Positions 1-11,480 of a stretch of DNA of 38,209 nt are shown piece by piece. A program made the position numbers and the translations under genes. Source of the DNA: a virus (taxonomy: Duplodnaviria > Heunggongvirae > Uroviricota > Caudoviricetes); the IMG/VR virus record IMGVR_UViG_2545824644_000015, positions 1-38,209 of that record; one strand, written 5' to 3'. The notes beneath the pieces were generated by a model. It did no database searches and had not been told where the DNA came from. It saw only the letters and a list, made by a program, of their open reading frames with translations. Positions within the stretch are counted from its first letter, which is position 1. Each line of letters opens with the position of its first letter.

Positions 1-1158
1 ATGCTCACCGTTAAGCAGATTGAAGCAGCAAAGCCGAAAGAAAAACCATACCGCCTTCTCGATGGTAATGGCCTGTACCTTTATGTCCCTGTATCAGGGA
101 AAAAGGTATGGCAGCTTCGCTACAAGATTGACGGTAAGGAGAAAATCCTGACCGTCGGAAAATATCCGCTTATGACTTTGCAGGAGGCAAGGGATAAAGC
201 ATGGACCGCGAGGAAAGACATCTCGGTTGGCATCGATCCGGTAAAAGCGAAAAAGGCTTCGTCTAACAACAATTCCTTTAGCGCCATTTACAAGGAATGG
301 TACGAGCACAAGAAGCAAGTCTGGTCAGTAGGCTATGCAAATGAACTTGCAAAAATGTTTGATGACGACATTTTACCCATCATCGGCGGTCTTGAGATTC
401 AGGATATTGAGCCGATGCAACTGTTGGAAGTAATCCGCAGATTTGAAGATCGCGGTGCAATGGAGCGAGCCAACAAAGCCCGCAGAAGATGCGGCGAGGT
501 TTTCCGTTACGCTATTGTCACTGGTAGGGCTAAATATAACCCGGCACCTGACCTTGCTGACGCCATGAAAGGATACCGCAAGAAGAACTTCCCGTTTCTT
601 CCTGCAGACCAGATCCCGGCATTCAACAAAGCACTGGCAACATTTTCAGGAAGTATCGTATCGCTCATTGCGACCAAAGTTTTACGCTACACAGCCCTAA
701 GAACGAAAGAGCTTCGTTCCATGCTATGGAAGAACGTCGATTTTGAAAACAGGATTATCACCATCGACGCCAGTGTGATGAAGGGTCGCAAAATTCATGT
801 GGTTCCTATGTCAGACCAGGTGGTTGAACTTCTCACTACGCTAAGCTCTATCACCAAACCAGTATCAGAGTTTGTTTTTGCCGGGCGCAACGATAAGAAA
901 AAGCCAATCTGCGAGAACGCGGTATTACTTGTGATCAAACGAATCGGCTATGAGGGTCTGGAAAGCGGTCACGGATTCAGGCATGAATTCAGCACGATTA
1001 TGAACGAGCACGAATGGCCTGCTGACGCTATTGAAGTGCAACTGGCACATGCCAACGGCGGATCTGTGCGTGGGATTTACAACCACGCTCAGTATCTCGA
1101 TAAGCGCAGGGAGATGATGCAGTGGTGGGCGGACTGGCTTGATGGGAAGGTGGAGTAG
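1..1158 (+). CDS. int: Tyrosine site-specific integrase (P4-like N-terminus)
   Basis: 385 aa ORF; N-terminal MLTVKQIEAAKPKEKPYRL...GLYLYV motif typical of phage integrases; C-terminal HGFRHEF (H-x-x-R) and RGIYNHAQY catalytic-Tyr region. Confidence 0.9.
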   Translation: MLTVKQIEAAKPKEKPYRLLDGNGLYLYVPVSGKKVWQLRYKIDGKEKILTVGKYPLMTLQEARDKAWTARKDISVGIDPVKAKKASSNNNSFSAIYKEWYEHKKQVWSVGYANELAKMFDDDILPIIGGLEIQDIEPMQLLEVIRRFEDRGAMERANKARRRCGEVFRYAIVTGRAKYNPAPDLADAMKGYRKKNFPFLPADQIPAFNKALATFSGSIVSLIATKVLRYTALRTKELRSMLWKNVDFENRIITIDASVMKGRKIHVVPMSDQVVELLTTLSSITKPVSEFVFAGRNDKKKPICENAVLLVIKRIGYEGLESGHGFRHEFSTIMNEHEWPADAIEVQLAHANGGSVRGIYNHAQYLDKRREMMQWWADWLDGKVE

Positions 1159-1330
1159 TTATTACAACGATTCTTATAAAAAAGAAAAGCCTTGCACATA
1201 TAGCAAAGCTTTTCACTTCTCAGGATTTCTTACACCAAGAAACCCTCAACAATAACAAATGCAATTTTATATGTTAACTACATATGCATTTCATTAAAAC
1301 CAATCATAAATGCTTATCATACTTTAATTG

Positions 1331-2458
1331 CTATAATTGATCGCCTTCTATTTTTTCAACTCGAGTGGTTGAAACATCATTCTTAAATCCACTCCACCAT
1401 TTTCTTAGCTTATTGTTTATTGGCTTTTCAAAAAACAAATACATCATTATTGATATAAATAATGAAGCAAACAGAGCCATTACTATAAATTTAATTACAT
1501 TTATAGCACCAAGACCAGAAACATTAAAGAACTTGCTCAATGTACTGATTACTATAGTGTGGACCAAGTAAAATGAAAAAGAAGCATCACCTAAAAGTAT
1601 CATAACTTTATTTGATATTATTTTTGAAATAATACCACCATTAAACGAAAACACTAATATTGAAAAGGCCATTGATGGTATAAAAAGCGCATCATACTGT
1701 AATCCATTGCTATTTTGACTTTTTGCCACCATATAGACAGACATTAGGATAAAGACTACAGATGATATTTCAGCAAATGATAGAACTAAATATGACGGCT
1801 TTGACTTAAACTCAAAATATAGTTTACACAATATAATACCGATTAAAAAGTCAGGCAACCTATTAAAAGGGTTTATGTAAAAGAACCAGTGAGAGAACGC
1901 ATCACTAATTTCCCCATAGCTTGCCATGTAAATAACATTAATTAAAATTAACGCAGCAAACAAAGCGAGCATTCTTTTTCGCGCGAAAATTATAAAACAA
2001 AAAGAAACATAAAAGAACATTTCTACAGAAATGCTCCAGGATACTGCATTGAATGAGAAATAGTCTTCCTTATCTACTGAGTAAGACTGAATTAATAGTG
2101 CATTTTTTATTATAGACAATATATTTGGTGAGAATCCACCACCTAATATTGAGTGTCCAACTATAAACACAGTCAAGCAAAGCAAATGTACTGGATATAT
2201 TCTAAATACTCGATGCGCAAGAAAATCAACGAAACTTCCGTTTCCATTACGCAATGAAATAGTAAAACTATATGTTAATATAAACCCAGATAAAATAAAA
2301 AAGAAAGTAACACCAGAATACCCAAGTTTAAAATATTCAAATGATGAAGCAAAATCTCTATTACTTGAATTTTGTATTACCGCCATGTGGCTAAAAAACA
2401 CCCCAAGGGCTGCAAATGCCCTTAGGGATGTCAGGCTATTTAGTCTTTCTGCGCGCAT
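1331..2458 (-). CDS. oac: Integral-membrane acyltransferase-3 family protein, probable O-antigen O-acetyltransferase (serotype conversion)
   Basis: Highly hydrophobic multi-TM ORF; N-terminus LTSLRAFAALGVFFSHM typical of acyltransferase-3; very AT-rich; sits between tailspike and integrase as oac does in Sf6. Start chosen at internal Met 13. Confidence 0.75.
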   Translation of the reverse strand: MRAERLNSLTSLRAFAALGVFFSHMAVIQNSSNRDFASSFEYFKLGYSGVTFFFILSGFILTYSFTISLRNGNGSFVDFLAHRVFRIYPVHLLCLTVFIVGHSILGGGFSPNILSIIKNALLIQSYSVDKEDYFSFNAVSWSISVEMFFYVSFCFIIFARKRMLALFAALILINVIYMASYGEISDAFSHWFFYINPFNRLPDFLIGIILCKLYFEFKSKPSYLVLSFAEISSVVFILMSVYMVAKSQNSNGLQYDALFIPSMAFSILVFSFNGGIISKIISNKVMILLGDASFSFYLVHTIVISTLSKFFNVSGLGAINVIKFIVMALFASLFISIMMYLFFEKPINNKLRKWWSGFKNDVSTTRVEKIEGDQL

Positions 2459-2567
2459 GATACACCTATGTTTTAATGCACAAAAATGCAACAAAAGATT
2501 GATGATACCATAAGCAACAGAAAAATCACATGATCACTTACTCACGTTCAACTTGTACCATCAGAAT

Positions 2568-5108
2568 CTAAATTATCTGCGTCACTGACAATGCTTTCTT
2601 TAACACCACTCCTCCGCTCGTTGTTGCTCCCTTTGAGTACTCAAAGGAGATATTGGCTGAAATGCCAAGATTCTCATCAGGACAATACCACCAAATTCCA
2701 ATAGGGAGCACAGATGCCTTGTCATAACTGACAGTGCGATCATACGACGACTGGTACCCATTGAAGTCATACCATTTAAACCCAGTAATTGCGTTGCCAG
2801 CAATCATGCAATCAGTGCTCATAACTACACCAAACGCATTCTTAATATTAGATGCAACTAATATGGCACTCATTGCGATATTCCTAAAGCTACATGACGT
2901 CACAGAGTATCCATTTGTATTTGCGTTTATAACTCCTATTTCTCCAAGGAAAGTCGTTGTCCTTATAGATCCATTAAAAAAAGATGTTGATTTTGTCCCT
3001 CTAAGACACACTCCCACATCAGACTCAAACGCGCTATCAGATATATCGATATACGTTGAACTTGCTGATGGATTATTCTTATAAAAGCTAACTCCGTAAT
3101 TTAGATTATTGAAATTACAACTATTAACCCTTACAGATGATACTCTTGCATCATATAAATAAAGGCCTGCCGTCATCCCTTCAAGGTGTGTGTCGTTTAA
3201 TGGAAACACTGCATTATCCCCAGCCTCGTTAGGATCATTCATTAATGTTTTAGGGTTTGTGAATTTATTTTTAATTATCGATGTAAACTCATCACAAAAA
3301 AAGTCATGTGATGCGCTATTAATTACCTTAAACCCTGAGAATCCGAATGGCTTCCCACCAGAGATTATTGCCAAACAAAATGCTTGCGCCCCACCGCGTA
3401 TTCTATATTGATTTGATTTTGATTCAAATTTAAAATTGCCTTGTAATGTTGAGTTGGTGATACAACTAAAAGAGTTACCTATGTATGATACGTTATTATT
3501 ATATGATGACGTTATGCTATAGCTGTTTACTTTATTTCCAGATATAAGAACATTATCACAAAAAAATTGAGCACATATCCCTGATTTTGATGTAACAACA
3601 TTATCAGACATTATGCTATGAATAACCATTGAGTGAAAAGTTATGCCCCAATGATCATGGCTATACGAAGTTGATATTAATGGATCGTTTATTATATTTC
3701 CAGTGCAGTTAACATAACAAACTTGCCTATATACTCCTATTGTTGAATCATTCAACCCAAGAGTTGAGCAAATGTTATCTTTAATAGAGCAAACAGAACT
3801 TGATGTGGCATAGCTAAACATAGCTTCTGGGATATTCCCTGTTAATCTATTCCTCTCGAATCTACCAGAATAACAATAATATCGCATCTCAACATGGACA
3901 TTATGGAAGTTACAACCAATCACTTCTGGCTCGATCTGAGACAAAAGCATGATTCTTCTTAGAGCATTGCTACTGCTTTTCATCGTCACACCATCTTTAA
4001 TTTTGAATGGCGTAAGGTTACCTGTTGGGAACCCAAATTTCGCAGTCCCAGCCACCTGATTTACCACCAGAGGTTGCGCCAAAATAGCCTTATTGGTAGT
4101 TGTATGACCTATAATTTTTGTTACCTGAATGAACTGAGATTGGTATCCATTCAAGTTACGTGTAAGTGCCAACCCATCTATGCTGTCAGCAGGTGTGGTG
4201 GATTTTTCCGCTTCATCAATACAGAACGGATATCCATTATCAATGACGACATATTGCCCTGTGCGATCTACACCATCGAGATATACCTCAGAGTGCCCTG
4301 CAGATGCAGGCTGAGAAAAAACTGTCATAGTTGGGAAGTCATATGGCTCAACCCTAAAATGATTACCCAATGTTATTGTGCCACGACCATATATACCTTT
4401 TGCCCCGGCTGGCGCTGTATAATCTGTTGTGGTGGTAAGGTCAGCTCCTGTAATGTTTACTTCTTCTCCGAAGTTAAACGCTGCCGTCAGTGCCTGCTCG
4501 GTTGTTACAAACCTATTGGTGTAGTTAAGGATATGGTTTAAATCATATCCGTTAAGATTCCCTACAGACTTCCAGTTTGAATCTGGTGAACTACCAGGAG
4601 GGACAGTTAATGGAACTGACAGATCACCAGTATAAATGTAATACCACCCAGTTGATGAATAGAATAGTGCCTGATATTTACTTGTTATCGTTGCACCAGA
4701 AGCAAAGGATACATTTTGCAGGCGTTTATAAACATTAAATCTAAAATTTTCATTAGCGTATAAAGAAAACTGATCTGGGTCGTACCCTAAAACATTCGGA
4801 AAATAGAACTGCTTCGCCCCATACGCATCGTACACAGCCATAGAATGGCCTTGCACAGTTACGAACTTGGCAATCTGTCCGTTATATACCGGGTAACCAG
4901 CAGCGTTAATGATGATTGGTTGAGAAACAGGAACGTGAGAACCGTCTTCGTTCTCCACATAAACCTGAATCCGGTTTTCAGGATTTACAGGGTCAGTGTC
5001 AATTTTACCGATATAAATTTCGCCATTAGCTACGGCTTTAAAAGAACGAGCCATAGTGAAGAGTTGCGAAGGCATCGATACAATCACATTAGCTGTAATG
5101 TCTGTCAT
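2568..5108 (-). CDS. Tailspike protein (P22-type head-binding N-domain fused to divergent receptor-binding domain)
   Basis: 846 aa; N-terminal ~115 aa [45 protein letters not shown]... matches the conserved P22/Sf6/HK620 tailspike head-binding domain as remembered; rest is an AT-rich, Asn/Ser/Thr-rich beta-helix-like domain. Confidence 0.9.
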
Positions 5109-5164
5109 TTAATTTGCTCCAGATACAAGGAATCGCCGCAGCGGGGCTACGGTGAATTTTGGGC

Positions 5165-5190
5165 ATAAAAAACCCAGCCGAAGCTGGGTC
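5165..5190 (-). terminator. Rho-independent terminator upstream of tailspike gene
   Basis: Plus strand aaaaaacccagccgaagctggg; on minus strand GC stem cccagc/gctggg followed by U-run. Confidence 0.6.
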
Positions 5191-5354
5191 GTTGCGTTGG
5201 TTATCTGTCAGTAGTTATGTACTGGCTGAAGGATTTGTACAAAAAAATCACCTGACGGTGGGTTAATTTTTGCATTTACCTGGGCCATATTGACTACTTA
5301 TAAAATGAGATCAATATTTAATCGCCCAATAACGGGTGTATGTTGAGGTATATC

Positions 5355-5534
5355 ATGGCGAAAAAACCAGGTGAAAACACAGGAAAAAACGGCGGAATAT
5401 ACCAAGAAGTTGGCCCACGCGGCGGTAAGAAAGACAATTTTGCCACCGTCAAGGACAACGAAAGGCTTCCACCAACAACAAAGCCAGGTCATGGCTGGGT
5501 ATTAGATAAGCGAACTCCAGACAGCAAAAAGTAA
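5355..5534 (+). CDS. Small conserved protein of unknown function (tentatively YjzC-like)
   Basis: 59 aa MAKKPGENTGKNGGIYQEVGPRGGKK...; RBS gagg 7 nt before ATG; own terminator immediately downstream. Family assignment from memory only. Confidence 0.55.
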   Translation: MAKKPGENTGKNGGIYQEVGPRGGKKDNFATVKDNERLPPTTKPGHGWVLDKRTPDSKK

Positions 5535-5540
5535 TAATCA

Positions 5541-5563
5541 AGCCGGGTCACTCCGGCTTTTTG
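5541..5563 (+). terminator. Rho-independent terminator
   Basis: agccgg-gtcact-ccggct hairpin followed by ttttt. Confidence 0.65.
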
Positions 5564-5913
5564 ATATGTCGCTCGCAGAACTCAACAAGCCTGCTCATTA
5601 AGTAGCAGTAAGTCTCGTTGGCTCTTCCTGGTTCAACATCAACACCGACCCTTGAGCAGATATCGAATGCCATGTGAGCGCACTCATGGGCAATAGTAGA
5701 TAGTTTGCCATTGAACACGCCTATCACATGCAAAACACCATTCTCGCTGCTCATTGTATGAGACGCTCCGTTGGCATCCGAGTCCTGCACGTCCACACCA
5801 AGTTTTTGATGCAGGCGTTGCCATTCTGGAAAGTCTCTACAAAACACAATTGTACCGCTCTCAAAGAGCGGAACGAGCATCTTTGGTACGTTTCCAATGT
5901 TAACTTTTTTCAT
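5548..5913 (-). CDS. Hypothetical protein with HExxH motif (possible small zinc metallopeptidase, ImmA/IrrE-like)
   Basis: ORF with internal start MKKVNIG (AGGA 4 nt upstream); contains HECAH with downstream Glu residues; no other recognisable domain. Confidence 0.4.
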   Translation of the reverse strand: MKKVNIGNVPKMLVPLFESGTIVFCRDFPEWQRLHQKLGVDVQDSDANGASHTMSSENGVLHVIGVFNGKLSTIAHECAHMAFDICSRVGVDVEPGRANETYCYLMSRLVEFCERHIKKPE

Positions 5914-5947
5914 GGTATCCTGCGCAAAACTAAGGAGGTTGGTGTGA
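5913..5947. repeat. 35-bp exact repeat copy 1 (tggtatcctgcgcaaaactaaggaggttggtgtga) carrying SD plus GTG start
   Basis: Identical to 7678..7712; contains aaggagg SD and GTG start of the downstream plus-strand gene; reverse strand supplies AGGA RBS and abuts start codon of the minus-strand HExxH gene. Confidence 0.9.
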
Positions 5948-6333
5948 AGCAATTTCTTGCTGCTATGTTCTTATTCATATCTTTTGGGGCTACAGCAGAG
6001 TGCTGGGTCGTTGGAGATATGCGCGGAATAAGCTATTCAGAACGAAATAATTTCCATCCGGAAGAAGATGGTTTTAGTGGAACATTCATCATTAAGACAA
6101 GCGGTGAAGATGCCAGCATCACATATTCTGGGACAGATGCGGGCGGCATGGCTTACAAAGCATTGTCTAAAAACTCCATCATAGGAATCGGCGCGAATGG
6201 CGAAACTCAACGCGTTATCGACTCATGGGTAATACATCCTACTGGAACAGTTTTAATGTCAAAAACCATTTCCGGTTATGGAAATATGGATTCAACCAAA
6301 GCTTTTGTTGGAAAAGTAAAAAGAAAATGTTAA
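5944..6333 (+). CDS. Secreted/periplasmic hypothetical protein (signal peptide)
   Basis: GTG start 7 nt after aaggagg; N-terminus VKQFLAAMFLFISFGATA-ECW has n/h/c signal-peptide architecture; Cys near both termini of the mature protein. Confidence 0.6.
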   Translation: MKQFLAAMFLFISFGATAECWVVGDMRGISYSERNNFHPEEDGFSGTFIIKTSGEDASITYSGTDAGGMAYKALSKNSIIGIGANGETQRVIDSWVIHPTGTVLMSKTISGYGNMDSTKAFVGKVKRKC

Positions 6334-6354
6334 TGATAGGATTATGGCCCTACA

Positions 6355-6540
6355 TCAACAGGTTACGCGCCCCTGAGTAATTCTATTGCGGATTTGCTTC
6401 TTACGGTGGTTTAGGCTGGAGAGCTTGTCTTCTGCTTCTGATATTTGCGCATCCAGATCTTTAAGTTCAAGCTCTGAAAGTCGCTGGTCAAGCAGGGTTT
6501 GGTTTAACTCAATGTTGTTCAGACGTTCTTCTATGGTCAT
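6355..6540 (-). CDS. Small coiled-coil hypothetical protein
   Basis: 61 aa; strong RBS taaggag 6 nt before ATG; heptad-like Leu/Glu-rich sequence. Confidence 0.45.
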   Translation of the reverse strand: MTIEERLNNIELNQTLLDQRLSELELKDLDAQISEAEDKLSSLNHRKKQIRNRITQGRVTC

Positions 6541-6552
6541 GATTACTCCTTA

Positions 6553-6580
6553 TAAAAAACCCACCTGAAGGTGGGTTTTA
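6553..6580. terminator. Bidirectional rho-independent terminator
   Basis: aaaaaa-cccacc-tgaa-ggtggg-tttt; A-run and T-run flank a perfect 6-bp GC stem so it can terminate either strand. Confidence 0.75.
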
Positions 6581-6583
6581 TAA

Positions 6584-7552
6584 TTAGATTTCTGGTTTCA
6601 TTCTTCCGAAAACCTTTTCTATTCCTTTTTCGTATTCTTCTCTTGTCTCACTCATCGCTGCGACACCAAGAAGCTTACCGATATGCTGACGCAAAGCCTT
6701 GACACCAATTTCAGAAAGGAACAGATGCAACTTATCAGATTGTTTTCCGTTCTCGTCTCGGCTGGCTCGAATCTGTTCAAGGATTTTACCTTTACTCTTT
6801 GCTAGCGGGGTGTATATCTGCATGTTGGTTAGCTGCCCAAAACGAATAGGTCGTCCTTTCTCTGGCCTATTCAGGCCGTACAGTCGATACCACTCCTCGT
6901 ATAGCTCATCTGGAAATTCCTTTTCATATTGACGAGCCTCTTCACGAACAAACGCTTTGAACTCGTCAATGACAGCCTGAACTTCTGGACGATAACCAGC
7001 AAGCGCATACGCAACCCCCTTAATTCCCGCCTTAGCGGAGGCATTAATAAGTCTCTGTGCTGCGGCGGCTGCCTTTAACCGTGATTGTGGTAGATCGTCA
7101 TTATCTTTGGCTTCTATTAGTGCCCTACCAATATCAACAATTGCTGTAATGTCATAACCTAACGCTTGATGAACGGTTTTAGACTTCGAAGTAAGTTGAA
7201 ATTTATAGGGATTTTCCATTTTTCGCTGCAATTCTAGATCTCGGTATTTGCTCATATACTGAGCGCCAAGCAGTTGATCTAAATCCCTGGCATGTTCACC
7301 AATCCCTAGCAACTGAGATAATCCAGTTTTCGTAACAACGACAGTTTTCGACTCGTCATCCAGTACATAACATTCAGCATCAATGCCAAAATCATCTAAA
7401 AAGTTACCACGATGAGTTGCCCTGAGAATCTTACTTTTCCATCTTGCAGCAGCTGCTTTCTTTGCTATTTCAGAACGCTGCTCTTTAGTCAGCGACTTTG
7501 CGCGAGCGATCCCGCCCTTAGCTTTCCCTTCGCCACTTTTCTTTTCAGTCAT
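6584..7552 (-). CDS. Hypothetical protein, P63C-domain-like with basic N-terminal region
   Basis: N-terminus MTEKKSGEGKAKGGIARAKSLTKEQRSEIAKKAAAARW resembles the conserved N-terminal motif of phage P63C-domain proteins (from memory); start placed at Met22 so the operator-like repeats lie upstream. Confidence 0.5.
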   Translation of the reverse strand: MTEKKSGEGKAKGGIARAKSLTKEQRSEIAKKAAAARWKSKILRATHRGNFLDDFGIDAECYVLDDESKTVVVTKTGLSQLLGIGEHARDLDQLLGAQYMSKYRDLELQRKMENPYKFQLTSKSKTVHQALGYDITAIVDIGRALIEAKDNDDLPQSRLKAAAAAQRLINASAKAGIKGVAYALAGYRPEVQAVIDEFKAFVREEARQYEKEFPDELYEEWYRLYGLNRPEKGRPIRFGQLTNMQIYTPLAKSKGKILEQIRASRDENGKQSDKLHLFLSEIGVKALRQHIGKLLGVAAMSETREEYEKGIEKVFGRMKPEI

Positions 7553-7553
7553 A

Positions 7554-7643
7554 ATGCAAGCACCTTTGTTGTGATGTATGCTTGCATTATATGCACTGTA
7601 CACACATACAAGCAAGCATAAAACAAAAACAAAATGCTTGCAT
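7554..7643. promoter_or_regulatory. Cluster of four 10-bp operator-like repeats (ATGCTTGCAT and inverse) in divergent intergenic region
   Basis: ATGCTTGCATTA at 7578 and 7634 (identical 12-mers); inverted near-copies ATGCAAGCAC at 7554 and AAGCAAGCAT at 7610. Confidence 0.5.
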
Positions 7644-7677
7644 TACAACCGCGCTACTCCAACTACACATTATCATC

Positions 7678-7712
7678 TGGTATCCTGCGCAAAACTAAGG
7701 AGGTTGGTGTGA
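7678..7712. repeat. 35-bp exact repeat copy 2 carrying SD plus GTG start
   Basis: Identical to 5913..5947. Confidence 0.9.
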
Positions 7713-8158
7713 GTGAAAAATTATCAGTTGAGATTTACAGGGATGCCAAAAAATTGATTAAAAAGGCATTGCTGATTTCCCTATCTTTGTTAGCCATTGC
7801 CATTGTTTATTTTGTGGCAGACAAAATCTATACAGAACAAAAAAATAGCAAAAAAAGCGCTGAACTGATTATGCGAGCCGAAAATGCTGTCAAGGGTAAA
7901 TCACCCATGGTATTCAACAGAACATTCCTTGGCGAAAGCTCCTCTATTTCTGTTTGGTTTATTAATGATTCAGATGGGCATATTCTTGTAGAAAAAAACG
8001 GTGAAAAATCATTGTTTTCATCAAGAGAATCCGTATACGGTGGCATCAATGCATACCATCAAGCCGGAAAGGCATGTGAAACCCTGTCTTTTTCTATGAC
8101 TTCAGGTTTTGTGATATCTGTTTCTTGCGATTTTGATGATTATTACACTAAAAAATAG
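7709..8158 (+). CDS. Membrane-anchored hypothetical protein (candidate superinfection-exclusion/moron product)
   Basis: GTG start after aaggagg inside the repeat; basic N-terminus followed by hydrophobic segment LLISLSLLAIAIVYFV; occupies the sieA/immI position of P22-like phages. Confidence 0.5.
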   Translation: MSEKLSVEIYRDAKKLIKKALLISLSLLAIAIVYFVADKIYTEQKNSKKSAELIMRAENAVKGKSPMVFNRTFLGESSSISVWFINDSDGHILVEKNGEKSLFSSRESVYGGINAYHQAGKACETLSFSMTSGFVISVSCDFDDYYTKK

Positions 8159-8175
8159 CCATCCATGGCATTTAG

Positions 8176-10008
8176 TCACTGCTGTGTTGCCTCAGTAGCA
8201 AACAGCGGTCTGATGGCATTCGCAGCATTATTTAGCGCTCTTTCATAGGCTGGCGTTCCTGCTTTGGTGTTTGCCAGACGTAAGAGCGCATTCCTGGCCA
8301 TAGGGCTTTCATAAACCCTCGACATAAGGCCAATCCCTGTTTCCCCAGCCAATAGCGCGCCTCCGGTTTTTAGGTTACCAATAACCCTTACCAAAGGCGC
8401 GAGTGTCATGCCAGTCTTCGTCACAACATTAGCCTCAGATGCTCTTTTGGTAGCATCGAGAATAGATAACATCCCCTCTATCTCTTTTCCGTTCTTCCCA
8501 CCAAATACAGTTTTAAACACCTGACCATTTGCTTGTTTTTGCAGTTTGCCAAGCTCGCTCATCATTTTCTGAGGGCTGTCACCTACCTTGTCAGCTATTT
8601 TGCTGATATATGCCGCCCTTAGCATGTCTTTACCTTTTTGATCGAGTTTCCCGTACAATCGAGCTATATCTGACCCATATTGTCCATACACAATGGTATT
8701 TACAGCCTCGGGAGTTAAATCTCCTTTGTTTAGAACGTTTTTAAGGCGCGTTTGAGTTGCATGTGTTGCCATTTTTGCATAATCAGCTTTTCCCGCTCTC
8801 CATGCTGAAGCATCTTTTGGGCTAAGTCCTTTCGCTATAGATTTACTAAGGCTATTGGTTAGCGAGTTATAGACCCTGTCGACCATTGTTTGCGACATTG
8901 ATGGCAGAACTGTACGATCGCCTTTTACGTCAATGCGGAACTGAGTTCTCAGCTTATCAAGTAACTCAAAGGCATCATCTCCATTTGTTATCTCCTGAAT
9001 GGCATTCTTATAATCATTAAGCGCAGAAATGGTCTGGGTGTCAGAAACACCTTTAAGTTTCCCAAGTTCGTTTACTGCTCCGTCGATAGCTCTTATGGCG
9101 CCACTTGTATCAACTGGCTTTCCAACCATTCTTCCTGACAGGCTGTTTAGTTTTGACTTGGCTAACGATTTTTCCCTTGCAACGCCTGACTTTAGACTAT
9201 CAACGACTACAGATGGATCGTAGTCGCCGTATTTTTCGGTGAAGCGATTAACAAGCTTGGTTCTGGCATCCTGCTGTGCGGATCTCATTGGTCCAGTACC
9301 AGCTATGACTCCTTCTGAGTAACCCTGCAGTTGATTGCCAAGTTTTGTTTTTGGAGGAACTACATCCGATGTCATAACTGGTACATCTGCCGCAGCGGCA
9401 CGCTTGAGCAATTGCTGATCTGCTGGTGATATTTCGCCACGAACAGCAGTAATTCCACGCCCTATTCCCTTTGCTGCTGCGGAAAGAACCCCCTGAGCGG
9501 CAAGGTTAACTCCGGCATTTTTAGCTGCATTTTGTGCGAAATCGCCTTTCTGATTTGCGGCCTCTGCCAGTGAGCCAATAGCCATGCTTCCTGCCGTTCC
9601 AACTCCTGGAACTAAATACCCACCAATTGTTTCACCGGCTTGCGCGTAGGGGTCTGTCGGTCGATCGACAGGGCGATAAACATCATCCAAAACCTTGGGG
9701 CCACCAAGCCCTTGGCTGATTGCATTAATCAGACTTGCGCCACCCTGCAATACGTCAAATGGTATGTTTACCAGACCGCGACCAGCCTGCTCTGCAATTT
9801 GCCCTGCACTTTGACCACCTGTGAGCCAATCGCCAGCTTGTTGCATCAATGATAGTTCTTCACGTGCTGGTTCATTATTGGCCTGATTAACTGTTTGTTG
9901 CTGAACAGCCTGACCAGCAAAATACTCATCAATGGCGGTGCCAATATCTTCCGTGCTCGTACCATCAGGGAAGGTAAATGTCTTACCGTTTGCAGTTACT
10001 TTCATCAT
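8176..10008 (-). CDS. Ejection (DNA transfer) protein, P22 gp16-like
   Basis: 610 aa, Gly/Ala-rich; position and size match P22 gp16; N-terminus [22 protein letters not shown]. Confidence 0.8.
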
Positions 10009-11480
10009 TCCACCGTAAATTGAATGCCTGATTTTGAGGTATATGATCCGGATTGACTCTGCTGCTGTTGGGTATTTGTCGGTTGTTGGCTATTGCTCTG
10101 TTGTTGACTATTTGCAGCACTTGAAACCACCAAAGCATCATAAACGCGACCAGACTGACCACGTAATGAGTTATATTGGCCCTGCATTTTTCGCATTTTT
10201 GTTTCAGTAGCAGCCTTGGAATCACCGGGCTGAGGCAGGTACATTTTGGAATACTCCTGCATCTCTGGCAGAGTAATTGCTGCACCTGTTTCTGGGCGCA
10301 AAATTGCATACAATGCGTCTCTCGCATTTACCATATATTGCTGCTCCGCTGGTGATAGGCTTAAATTTGCAATAGTCCCATCACCAAGAGAGCGATTTAT
10401 TAATGCAACTCGCTTAGGGTCAATGCTTTTACTAAGCTGATTCATTGAGTCCATTGAATCTTTTAATCGCAAAGCAAATCCTGCCGCCTTCTTGGAACCC
10501 TCATTAGCCTTATCTATGATGCTTTGCGCTTGTGGCAAGCTAATTGGTTTAATGCCATCACCAGATATAGGTTGGTTTAGTTTTCCGGCTTCCTCGCTGC
10601 CATCGGTGTAATACTTAGTTACCGAGCCATCAGGATTGGTTTCAACCTTAAGTAATTTCTTAGCATTGGGATTAATTCCCGCCGCTGCCGCAAATGCCGC
10701 TGCACCATCTGGATCCGCCTTTAACATTTGCGCGTACTGATTATAATTCTGCATTGCGGCTGTTGGTGCATATGCTGACGTTAACGCATTTGCTCGGCTA
10801 ATATCCTGCCCTCTCGCCTGAAGTGCTTCTCCAGCCTTATTGCTGCGGATTGTCTCTGCCAGCCTGCCTCGGTCAATTTCACGACCAGCCATCTTATCCT
10901 GAACAGCAAACGCCTTTTCTGGTCCAAGCGCACCGAGAGACATAGTAGTCAGCATGTGTGATAGCTGCTCTGGATTCTGGATACCTGTCTGAATCATCCA
11001 GTCAGCATTCGCACCAACGCGATTTAACCTGTCCTTGTTGTCAGTAATGAATTTACTGTAGGCTTCCGGTCCCTGAGAAAGAGCGACGTTAGCCCTCATG
11101 GCTAAATCGCCCATATCGTTGCGTTGCTGCTCATTAAGACCGGAAAACGCCTGTTGTGCCTGCGCAACAAACGCTGGATTTTCCTTGGCAAACTTAAATA
11201 GTCCCGATGGATCACCAGAAGCCCATGCATCAGCATGAACCTTATTGAACGCATTAATCGCTTTCTGTTGCTGTTCCTGCTTATAAATATCAGCAACTCC
11301 AGCCAGACCACGTAACGCGGTCAGACCAACGTTATTTGCACCTGAGCGAGCCAGTTCATTGTTTTCGCGGATCAGACCAAGCGTTGCGTTAATGTCGCTT
11401 GCCTTTGGCGCATTCTCATTTTGCGTACCGATGCCAGCCAGAAAACCACCAGAATTAATACCCTGTTGCCACGTAGCCAT
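10005..11480 (-). CDS. Ejection protein, P22 gp20-like
   Basis: 491 aa, Gln/Ala-rich; gene order and size. Confidence 0.75.

Follow-up and report, generated by a model that had tools for sequence, protein, structure and literature searches.

The IMG/VR virus record IMGVR_UViG_2545824644_000015 (Caudoviricetes) was analyzed over its positions 1 to 38,209; this whole stretch of 38,209 nucleotides (nt), referred to here as the window, is a complete P22-like (Lederbergvirus-type) prophage of Escherichia coli. Our subject is a pair of adjacent genes near one end, between positions 1331 and 5108: a tailspike gene (2568 to 5108, minus strand, 846 amino acids) and a gene for a membrane acyltransferase of the AT3 family (Table 1). 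The tailspike gene stands at the end of the P22-type virion set, beside the integrase (int) end of the prophage. A single open reading frame (ORF) of at least 100 amino acids lies between tailspike and int, and it encodes the AT3 protein; gtrABC-type conversion genes (encoding the GtrA flippase and GtrB glucosyltransferase) were not found in this interval. A first-pass annotation, made from the sequence alone, had proposed that the pair forms a host-range/serotype module, in which a mosaic tailspike is accompanied by an acyltransferase that would modify the host O antigen after lysogeny.

The tailspike is a P22-like family member by its anchor and its genomic position but not by its receptor-binding domain (RBD). 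Its N-terminal anchor, a P22-type head-binding domain, is encoded by DNA with 86 to 94% identity to that of phages HK620, Sf6, N7, and CUS-3. Similarity to these phages, and to Salmonella P22-like phages, ends at window position 4768, which corresponds to codon 114. A search of PDB sequences matched Sf6 gp14 (7sg7) and the P22 tailspike to residues 1 to 132 only, and because these matches stop there, we conclude that the C-terminal 733 amino acids are unlike the P22 RBD. C-terminal homology to the RBDs of P22, Sf6, or HK620 was not found in this search or in a tblastn search of phage genomes. Thus, both halves of the original proposal for this protein, a P22-type head-binding domain of about 115 residues (Pfam family PF09008, residues 1 to 113) and some 730 further residues unlike the P22 RBD, agree with the domain-wise searches.

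The RBD belongs to a very rare family. Among 50,697 phage genomes, the sole tblastn match to residues 114 to 846 was protein WQY91224.1 of Hafnia phage TS33 (57.6% identity over 97% of the C-terminal domain). This protein is annotated as hypothetical and is uninformative on specificity; hence, the best match in these genomes is not a characterized tailspike, and near identity to one, which would have told against a swapped domain, was not seen. A search of 5.8 billion proteins yielded ten relatives, and HMMER, run in full against 1.84 billion cluster representatives, gave four RBD clusters at E < 1e-30. The remaining HMMER matches covered just a small PF18668-like domain (about residues 118 to 205) of a type that is common to many tailspikes. 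An RBD alignment scan of one genome per GTDB species gave no confirmed relative, and window positions 1800 to 4780, which span the RBD and the 5′ part of the acyltransferase gene, had no megablast match in 5,426 complete E. coli genomes. The exact tailspike protein is present in NCBI as WP_021499307.1, an uncharacterized E. coli “phage head-binding domain-containing protein,” and tailspikes of this type occur in roughly 100 E. coli assemblies. NCBIfam has no family for the tailspike or for the acyltransferase.

We used an alignment of the ten sequences to model the RBD with AlphaFold. The model had a predicted local distance difference test (pLDDT) score of 68.5, with a confident beta-strand core, and its central body is predicted to be a right-handed parallel beta-helix of the pectin-lyase-like kind. 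On this prediction, the fold is that of a tailspike that binds or cleaves polysaccharide. The structural matches found in fold searches were 7 to 13% identical in sequence, and hydrolase and lyase chemistry were not separable in these searches. Four acidic residues in the helix body (E294, D341, D405, and D584 in C-domain numbering) are invariant.

The acyltransferase ORF (positions 1331 to 2494, minus strand) reads as 387 amino acids from a TTG codon and as 375 amino acids from an ATG at 2458; the latter aligns with the starts of homologues and is the start chosen by public gene callers. The match to PF01757 spans profile positions 3 to 325 of 326 (E = 6.3e-29; 101.5 bits against a cutoff of 31) and is the only Pfam match, no SGNH domain being found in the 375-residue protein. 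The protein also matched PHROG 3333, “O-acetyltransferase” (E = 1.4e-82), whereas a PDB sequence search returned a chance match only. OafB, Oac, and other AT3 proteins depend on two motifs, R-X10-H in the first transmembrane helix and RXXR in the third (PMC9833829). The corresponding residues are R13-X10-H24 and R83-V-F-R86, and all four are invariant in 15 homologues that include Sf6 Oac. W141, E146, and E344 are likewise invariant in this set, and Y194 is nearly so. A simple hydropathy scan showed 7 to 9 strongly hydrophobic segments and a weaker first helix, where about 10 transmembrane helices are expected for the family. An identical protein, uncharacterized and named “acyltransferase family protein” by NCBI, is present in about 30 E. 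coli assemblies. The protein is thus neither truncated nor visibly inactive, and we conclude that it is an intact, AT3-only member of the family. It is its position that suggests membership in the serotype-converting class of O-antigen acetyltransferases.

We then compared base composition across the window. The G+C content (GC) of the acyltransferase gene is 0.316 (0.269 at third codon positions), as expected from its description in the first-pass annotation as very AT rich. The head-binding domain has a GC of 0.440 and the remainder of the window 0.478, and tailspike residues 114 to 846 are lower, at 0.381. Both genes lie below every stretch of the same length elsewhere in the phage (minima, 0.396 and 0.414). 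An AT-rich tailspike after residue ~115 had been predicted, and this held for the average but not throughout: GC is 0.349 for residues 114 to 200, 0.442 for residues 201 to 400, 0.341 for residues 401 to 700, and 0.402 for residues 701 to 846. The drop at residues 114 to 200 similarly agrees with the proposed composition break, but the break in homology at codon 114 is the sharper of the two. We considered whether low GC is peculiar to the E. coli copy and rejected this, since the related cassettes described below are also GC poor in Enterobacter-type hosts (acyltransferase, 0.33 to 0.35; RBD, 0.42 to 0.45) within flanks of 51 to 57% GC. The cassette is GC poor in every host, which makes low GC a feature of the cassette rather than of the E. 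coli copy.

The main new evidence that the two genes belong together came from their relatives. Window positions from about 4600 to 1568 align with two other loci as one uninterrupted blastn block of 3.04 to 3.06 kb at 70% identity, and this block extends from the RBD across the spacer and through most of the acyltransferase gene. The first locus is a metagenomic contig (L010) whose RBD is 78% identical to that of the window at the amino acid level. Its anchor is 68% identical to the N terminus of TL-2011b gp48, a putative tailspike annotated as hypothetical, and holin genes follow its acyltransferase gene; we therefore regard L010 as an epsilon15-like podovirus. The second locus is a siphovirus prophage of Enterobacter cloacae (L014/L015; RBD, 75%), which has a tape-measure gene and a different anchor. 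Both carry an AT3-only acyltransferase, 56% identical to that of the window, co-directional with the tailspike gene. L010 and L014 have in common a block of 3,166 bp at 89.8% identity (RBD, 91.3%; acyltransferase, 90.4%), despite which their anchors and downstream genes are unrelated. In addition, a chromosomal locus without phage genes (L012/L013) has retained an intact acyltransferase gene and, attached to it, the 3′ end of a frameshifted tailspike gene.

More distant relatives of the RBD showed which partner genes are found beside it. A siphovirus prophage (L007/L008/L017) and a Lelliottia myovirus prophage (L009), each with an RBD 70% identical to that of the window, encode a 618-residue AT3-SGNH protein on a gene convergent with the tailspike gene. 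These AT3-SGNH proteins are 23 to 29% identical to the window acyltransferase, and the convergent pair is one 4.1-kb block common to L007 and L009. A viral contig with a siphovirus-type anchor (L018; RBD, 41%) has a convergent AT3 gene. No acyltransferase gene accompanies the RBD in a lytic-type genome encoding DNA polymerase A (L011; RBD, 65%) or in the lytic-type Hafnia phage TS33 (RBD, 58%). Overall, an AT3 gene immediately adjoins the RBD in 7 of 7 temperate contexts and is absent from both lytic-type contexts. We conclude from these alignments that the RBD and the acyltransferase are inherited together as one collinear DNA block across unrelated phage backbones. The idea of a host-range/serotype module is thereby strengthened beyond what could be seen from the window itself.

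Two further observations concern the same kind of gene pair. One siphovirus tail anchor, 84 to 86% identical over 135 amino acids, is present in L014, L007, and L018 with three combinations of RBD and acyltransferase (AT3-only and co-directional; AT3-SGNH and convergent; and a 41 to 44% identical RBD with a convergent AT3 gene), which shows repeated replacement of the module on a single backbone. We also found a second, unrelated RBD (PF27114) paired with an AT3 gene in a TL-2011b-type epsilon15-like prophage and a P22-like argW prophage of E. coli (L020, positions 2837 to 6107; L022, positions 3134 to 6110). Their anchors are unrelated, and the pair forms one block of 2,485 bp with 82% DNA identity (RBD, 92.5% amino acid identity; acyltransferase, 64%). 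This pair behaves in the same way, and the cassette behavior is therefore not unique to the window.

The general layout has long been known and is textbook knowledge for Sf6, P22/BTP1, epsilon15, and PhiV10; the established concepts are unchanged by our analysis. Sf6 is the nearest in genome type, being a P22-like podovirus with an IntS-type integrase (96.8% DNA identity), the same head-binding domain (7sg7 is the best PDB sequence match), and an AT3-only acyltransferase, Oac, between tailspike gp14 and int; the R-X10-H and RXXR motifs are common to both proteins. The Sf6 RBD, in contrast, is unrelated, with similarity ending at codon 114, and oac, which has an annotated promoter of its own, is oriented toward the tailspike gene, whereas the window acyltransferase gene is co-directional with the tailspike gene. 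The epsilon15/PhiV10-like phages, represented by TL-2011b, resemble the window in having a tailspike gene followed after a short gap by a co-directional gene for an AT3-only protein. The TL-2011b O-acetyltransferase is the closest to that of the window in deposited phage genomes (41.9%), and the epsilon15-like contig L010 carries the RBD and acyltransferase cassette itself. These phages differ from the window in their anchor type and in having holin and endolysin genes, rather than int, after the cassette, and the TL-2011b RBD is unrelated.

BTP1, a P22-like prophage with an AT3-family acetyltransferase, supplies the functional model adopted here. BTP1 GtrC/OafB shields the O antigen of the lysogen against the tailspike of the same prophage and is both required and sufficient for blocking infection (PMC4413052; reviewed in PMC9558356). 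OafB (GtrC) combines AT3 and SGNH domains in one fusion protein and has 27.9% identity to the window protein over 82% of its length, and the BTP1 tailspike, unlike that of the window, is a rhamnosidase of the P22 type; the function of the BTP1 protein was determined experimentally, whereas that of the window protein is suggested by analogy. An oac homologue of PhiV10 modifies the O157 antigen (PMC9558356). Hafnia phage TS33, the only deposited phage genome with a homologous RBD, is unlike the window in being a siphovirus of the virulent subfamily Guernseyvirinae, with a different anchor and no adjacent acyltransferase gene. Against this background, what is new is an uncharacterized and rare RBD subtype with its own acyltransferase, and the sequences show clearly that both move together between phage morphotypes and genera.

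We also analyzed the spacer between the two genes and the hairpins around them (Table 1). By eye, the spacer contains a candidate extended −10 promoter, TGgTATCAT (positions 2510 to 2502), and an AGGTG ribosome-binding site (2467 to 2463). A consensus scan listed no terminator there. A firm promoter call for the acyltransferase gene was rejected, since consensus sites were no more frequent than chance would give. The corresponding spacer of the relatives L010, L014, and L012 contains a promoter-like TTGAAT/A-16-TATGAT that is conserved among them. Phase variation of the gtr type, driven by Dam and OxyR, was set aside, since the spacer has one GATC and there are no GtrA or GtrB genes. The terminator-like hairpin in codons 11 to 22 of the acyltransferase gene has a predicted RNA folding energy of −22.6 kcal/mol (z = −3.5). 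Relatives with 56 to 58% amino acid identity keep it, two of its pairs having changed by compensatory, synonymous substitutions, whereas the 42% identical relative in phage TL-2011b lacks it. The hairpin may be an attenuator, or a terminator of read-through from the tailspike gene; with so few sequences, and with an encoded peptide motif that is itself so conserved, the hairpin is not called functional here. The terminator between the acyltransferase and integrase genes, given its position between convergent genes, probably acts in both directions. HK620 has annotated terminators in the stretch homologous to the region of the hairpin upstream of the tailspike gene.

Table 1. Features of the tailspike-acyltransferase region and the adjoining integrase gene (window coordinates)
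Feature	Position	Strand	Basis or remarks
IntS-type tyrosine integrase	1..1158	+	Pfam PF00589, PF22022, PF13356; prophage end at argW site
Hairpin terminator between convergent acyltransferase and integrase genes	1184..1214	called on − only	12-bp stem and T-run
AT3-only membrane acyltransferase, 375 amino acids	1331..2458	−	Pfam PF01757; same strand as tailspike, downstream
Terminator-like hairpin and T-run inside acyltransferase codons 11 to 22	2391..2427 (hairpin 2427-2401)	−	Scan; 10-bp stem, 7 G-C pairs
109-bp spacer, tailspike stop to acyltransferase ATG	2459..2567	−	Read from sequence
Tailspike residues 114 to 846, swapped receptor-binding part	2568..4769	−	PF18668-like domain, beta-helix body (predicted), C-terminal domain
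Tailspike residues 1 to 113, P22-type head-binding (anchor) domain	4770..5108	−	Pfam PF09008, E=1.8e-63
Terminator-like hairpin upstream of tailspike gene	5171..5190	−	Scan match

Starting from the chimeric architecture of the tailspike, the beta-helix fold of its RBD, the intact acyltransferase motifs, and the co-inheritance of both genes, we propose, with a probability of roughly two in three, that the tailspike binds and probably cleaves a surface polysaccharide, most likely O antigen, and that the acyltransferase modifies the same polymer in the lysogen and thereby blocks the tailspike. The conserved 113-residue anchor plugs into the P22-type tail and is joined at codon 114 to a rare beta-helix RBD, whose most likely function is to bind and cleave a particular polysaccharide of the cell surface, with O antigen as the most probable candidate. 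The acyltransferase would take an acyl group, probably acetyl from acetyl coenzyme A, across the inner membrane onto that same polysaccharide in the lysogen. The modified polysaccharide would then no longer be bound or cut by the phage's own tailspike or by phages of the same specificity. The expected outcome would be superinfection exclusion, an O antigen of the lysogen that is shielded from the tailspikes of induced siblings, and a changed serotype. In this reading, the two functions are passed on as a single AT-rich cassette of roughly 3.2 kb, which recombines at the anchor/RBD joint and near the acyltransferase 3′ end, and this accounts for the presence of the cassette on podovirus and siphovirus backbones. 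By analogy with Sf6 Oac, BTP1 GtrC/OafB, and PhiV10, for which superinfection exclusion and serotype change have been demonstrated, we infer which polysaccharide is the target, how the RBD acts on it chemically, which acyl group is added and where, that the acyltransferase gene is expressed in the lysogen, and that the tailspike is thereby blocked.

Several points weigh against this proposal. The consensus scan listed no promoter in the spacer, the region has no more promoter-like sites than expected by chance (17 found; 17.6 expected), and the motif of the relatives is not retained in the window. The acyltransferase gene is co-directional with the late operon, unlike the convergent oac of Sf6, so that the layout gives no clear sign of its expression from the prophage. 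The hairpin in codons 11 to 22 could limit expression of the acyltransferase. With regard to the proteins, the acyltransferase aligns with Sf6 Oac over 157 residues at just 25% identity, and glycans other than O antigen are also modified by AT3-only proteins. The RBD model is of moderate quality, with model residues 144 to 250 and 662 to 733 poorly predicted, and no catalytic residues are assignable from it.

The alternative that survives best concerns the target. The polysaccharide recognized by both proteins might be a group 1 or group 4 capsule, colanic acid, or enterobacterial common antigen, in which case the tailspike would be a capsule depolymerase and the acyltransferase would modify capsule. 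We consider this unlikely, though it is the strongest of the competing explanations. The PHROG match is driven by the anchor domain, and the beta-helix fold does not discriminate, since the O-antigen tailspikes of Det7, 9NA, HK620, and CBA120 score almost as high. Furthermore, most P22-like and epsilon15-like phages of E. coli and Salmonella with such a layout target O antigen (PMC10408124).

It is less probable still that the linkage is merely positional, with both genes occupying a recombination-prone slot at the end of the tail block and the acyltransferase being a passenger without effect on recognition. Lederberg- and Uetakevirus genomes are indeed at their most variable downstream of the receptor-binding gene (PMC10408124), divergence in both cassettes is much faster for the acyltransferase than for the RBD (56% versus 78% and 64% versus 92.5%), and RBDs that are 80% identical are paired with unrelated types of acyltransferase. 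However, a chance occupant of this slot would not be expected from the unbroken association with AT3 genes in temperate contexts and its absence from lytic-type ones, nor from transfer as uninterrupted blocks that end at the anchor joint and the acyltransferase 3′ end; even the decayed tailspike remnant of L012/L013 keeps the two together. Finally, it is very improbable that the acyltransferase is mainly a late-operon gene, expressed by read-through in lytic growth and modifying the polysaccharide of the dying cell to free progeny from debris: this would suit its strand, the 109-bp gap without a terminator or consensus promoter, and its place between tailspike and lysis genes, inside the late block, in epsilon15-like relatives, but lysogens of PhiV10, taken to share the TL-2011b layout (its own gene order is assumed), are serotype converted (PMC9558356), a conserved promoter-like motif precedes the gene in relatives, and the intact acyltransferase gene of L012, beside a tailspike remnant and with no phage genes, points to an advantage for the host that is independent of lytic growth.

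The remainder of the prophage places the gene pair in a familiar setting. Beyond positions 1331 to 5108, the window contains a virion and ejection gene set of the P22-like type, and between positions 5300 and 30000 there are large blocks with 95 to 97% identity to Escherichia phages phiv205-1, CUS-3, and Kapi1. A gp20-type ejection gene (PF16928; 10005 to 11480) lies upstream of the tailspike gene, and gp20 and gp16 precede the tailspike gene in other E. coli copies. The integrase gene has 96.9% DNA identity to the intS that adjoins a tRNA-Arg gene in O157:H7. The whole block of int, acyltransferase, and tailspike genes (window 1 to 5123) is 98.3% identical in other E. coli assemblies, where it adjoins yfdC, mlaA, and fadL, that is, the argW site; the same arrangement is found in about 22 E. 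coli contigs.

O157:H7 genomes have a decayed copy of the window prophage at argW (locus L001, positions 6001 to 8469 of NZ_AP018488.1). This copy matches window positions 1 to 1818 and 10828 to 10905, with a deletion equivalent to positions 1819 to 10827 (about 9.0 kb). Following intS is a chimeric ORF of 378 amino acids, in which the N terminus of a gp20-type ejection protein is fused in frame to acyltransferase residues 215 to 375 (98.8% amino acid identity). An O157:H7 ancestor therefore carried the window acyltransferase. The public annotation of the fusion ORF, as “phage DNA ejection protein” or “acyltransferase,” is misleading.

The region upstream of the tailspike gene is variable. A 25-nt sequence occurs there in three related copies (5165 to 5189, 5239 to 5263, and 6552 to 6576; 72 to 88% identical to the first), of which the first two overlap scan-predicted terminator-like hairpins; the three copies may mark module boundaries. 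A perfect direct repeat of 35 nt, TGGTATCCTGCGCAAAACTAAGGAGGTTGGTGTGA, is present at 5913 to 5947 and 7678 to 7712 (plus strand). It contains a Shine-Dalgarno sequence and a GTG start and precedes each of two plus-strand, passenger-type ORFs located between the tailspike and ejection genes. The first ORF encodes 116 amino acids with a signal-peptide-like N terminus (phrog_2651) and ends at 6333; the second encodes about 149 amino acids with one hydrophobic segment, has no family match, and ends at 8158. Positions 6584 to 7615 (minus strand) encode a 343-residue P63C-domain protein (PF10546, phrog_2384) in the variable region where P22 has its immI genes. This region differs among otherwise identical E. 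coli copies of the module, with an HNH endonuclease in L003 and an Arc/Mnt-type repressor in L006.

The mobility of the gene pair suggests an extension of the proposed function that we advance tentatively and, on balance, doubt. Recognition and receptor masking might constitute one selectable mobile unit, passed intact among P22-like, epsilon15-like, siphovirus, and, with the other acyltransferase type, myovirus prophages of different enterobacterial genera. The hairpin in codons 11 to 22 might be a functional element of the cassette, ending late read-through or throttling untranslated message.

If the pairing of tailspike and acyltransferase is functional, the window would provide a new E. 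coli receptor specificity together with the modification that cancels it, and could help in predicting prophage host range, in typing O antigens with phage proteins, and in engineering reagents or tailocins based on tailspikes. The joint travel of the two genes also suggests a rule for annotation, that an AT3 gene beside a tailspike RBD points to that RBD's own receptor. If recognition and masking do move as a single unit, a new host range would bring matching immunity and serotype conversion with it automatically. Joint travel would also explain why temperate phages can switch host range without necessarily laying the new lysogen open to self-attack.

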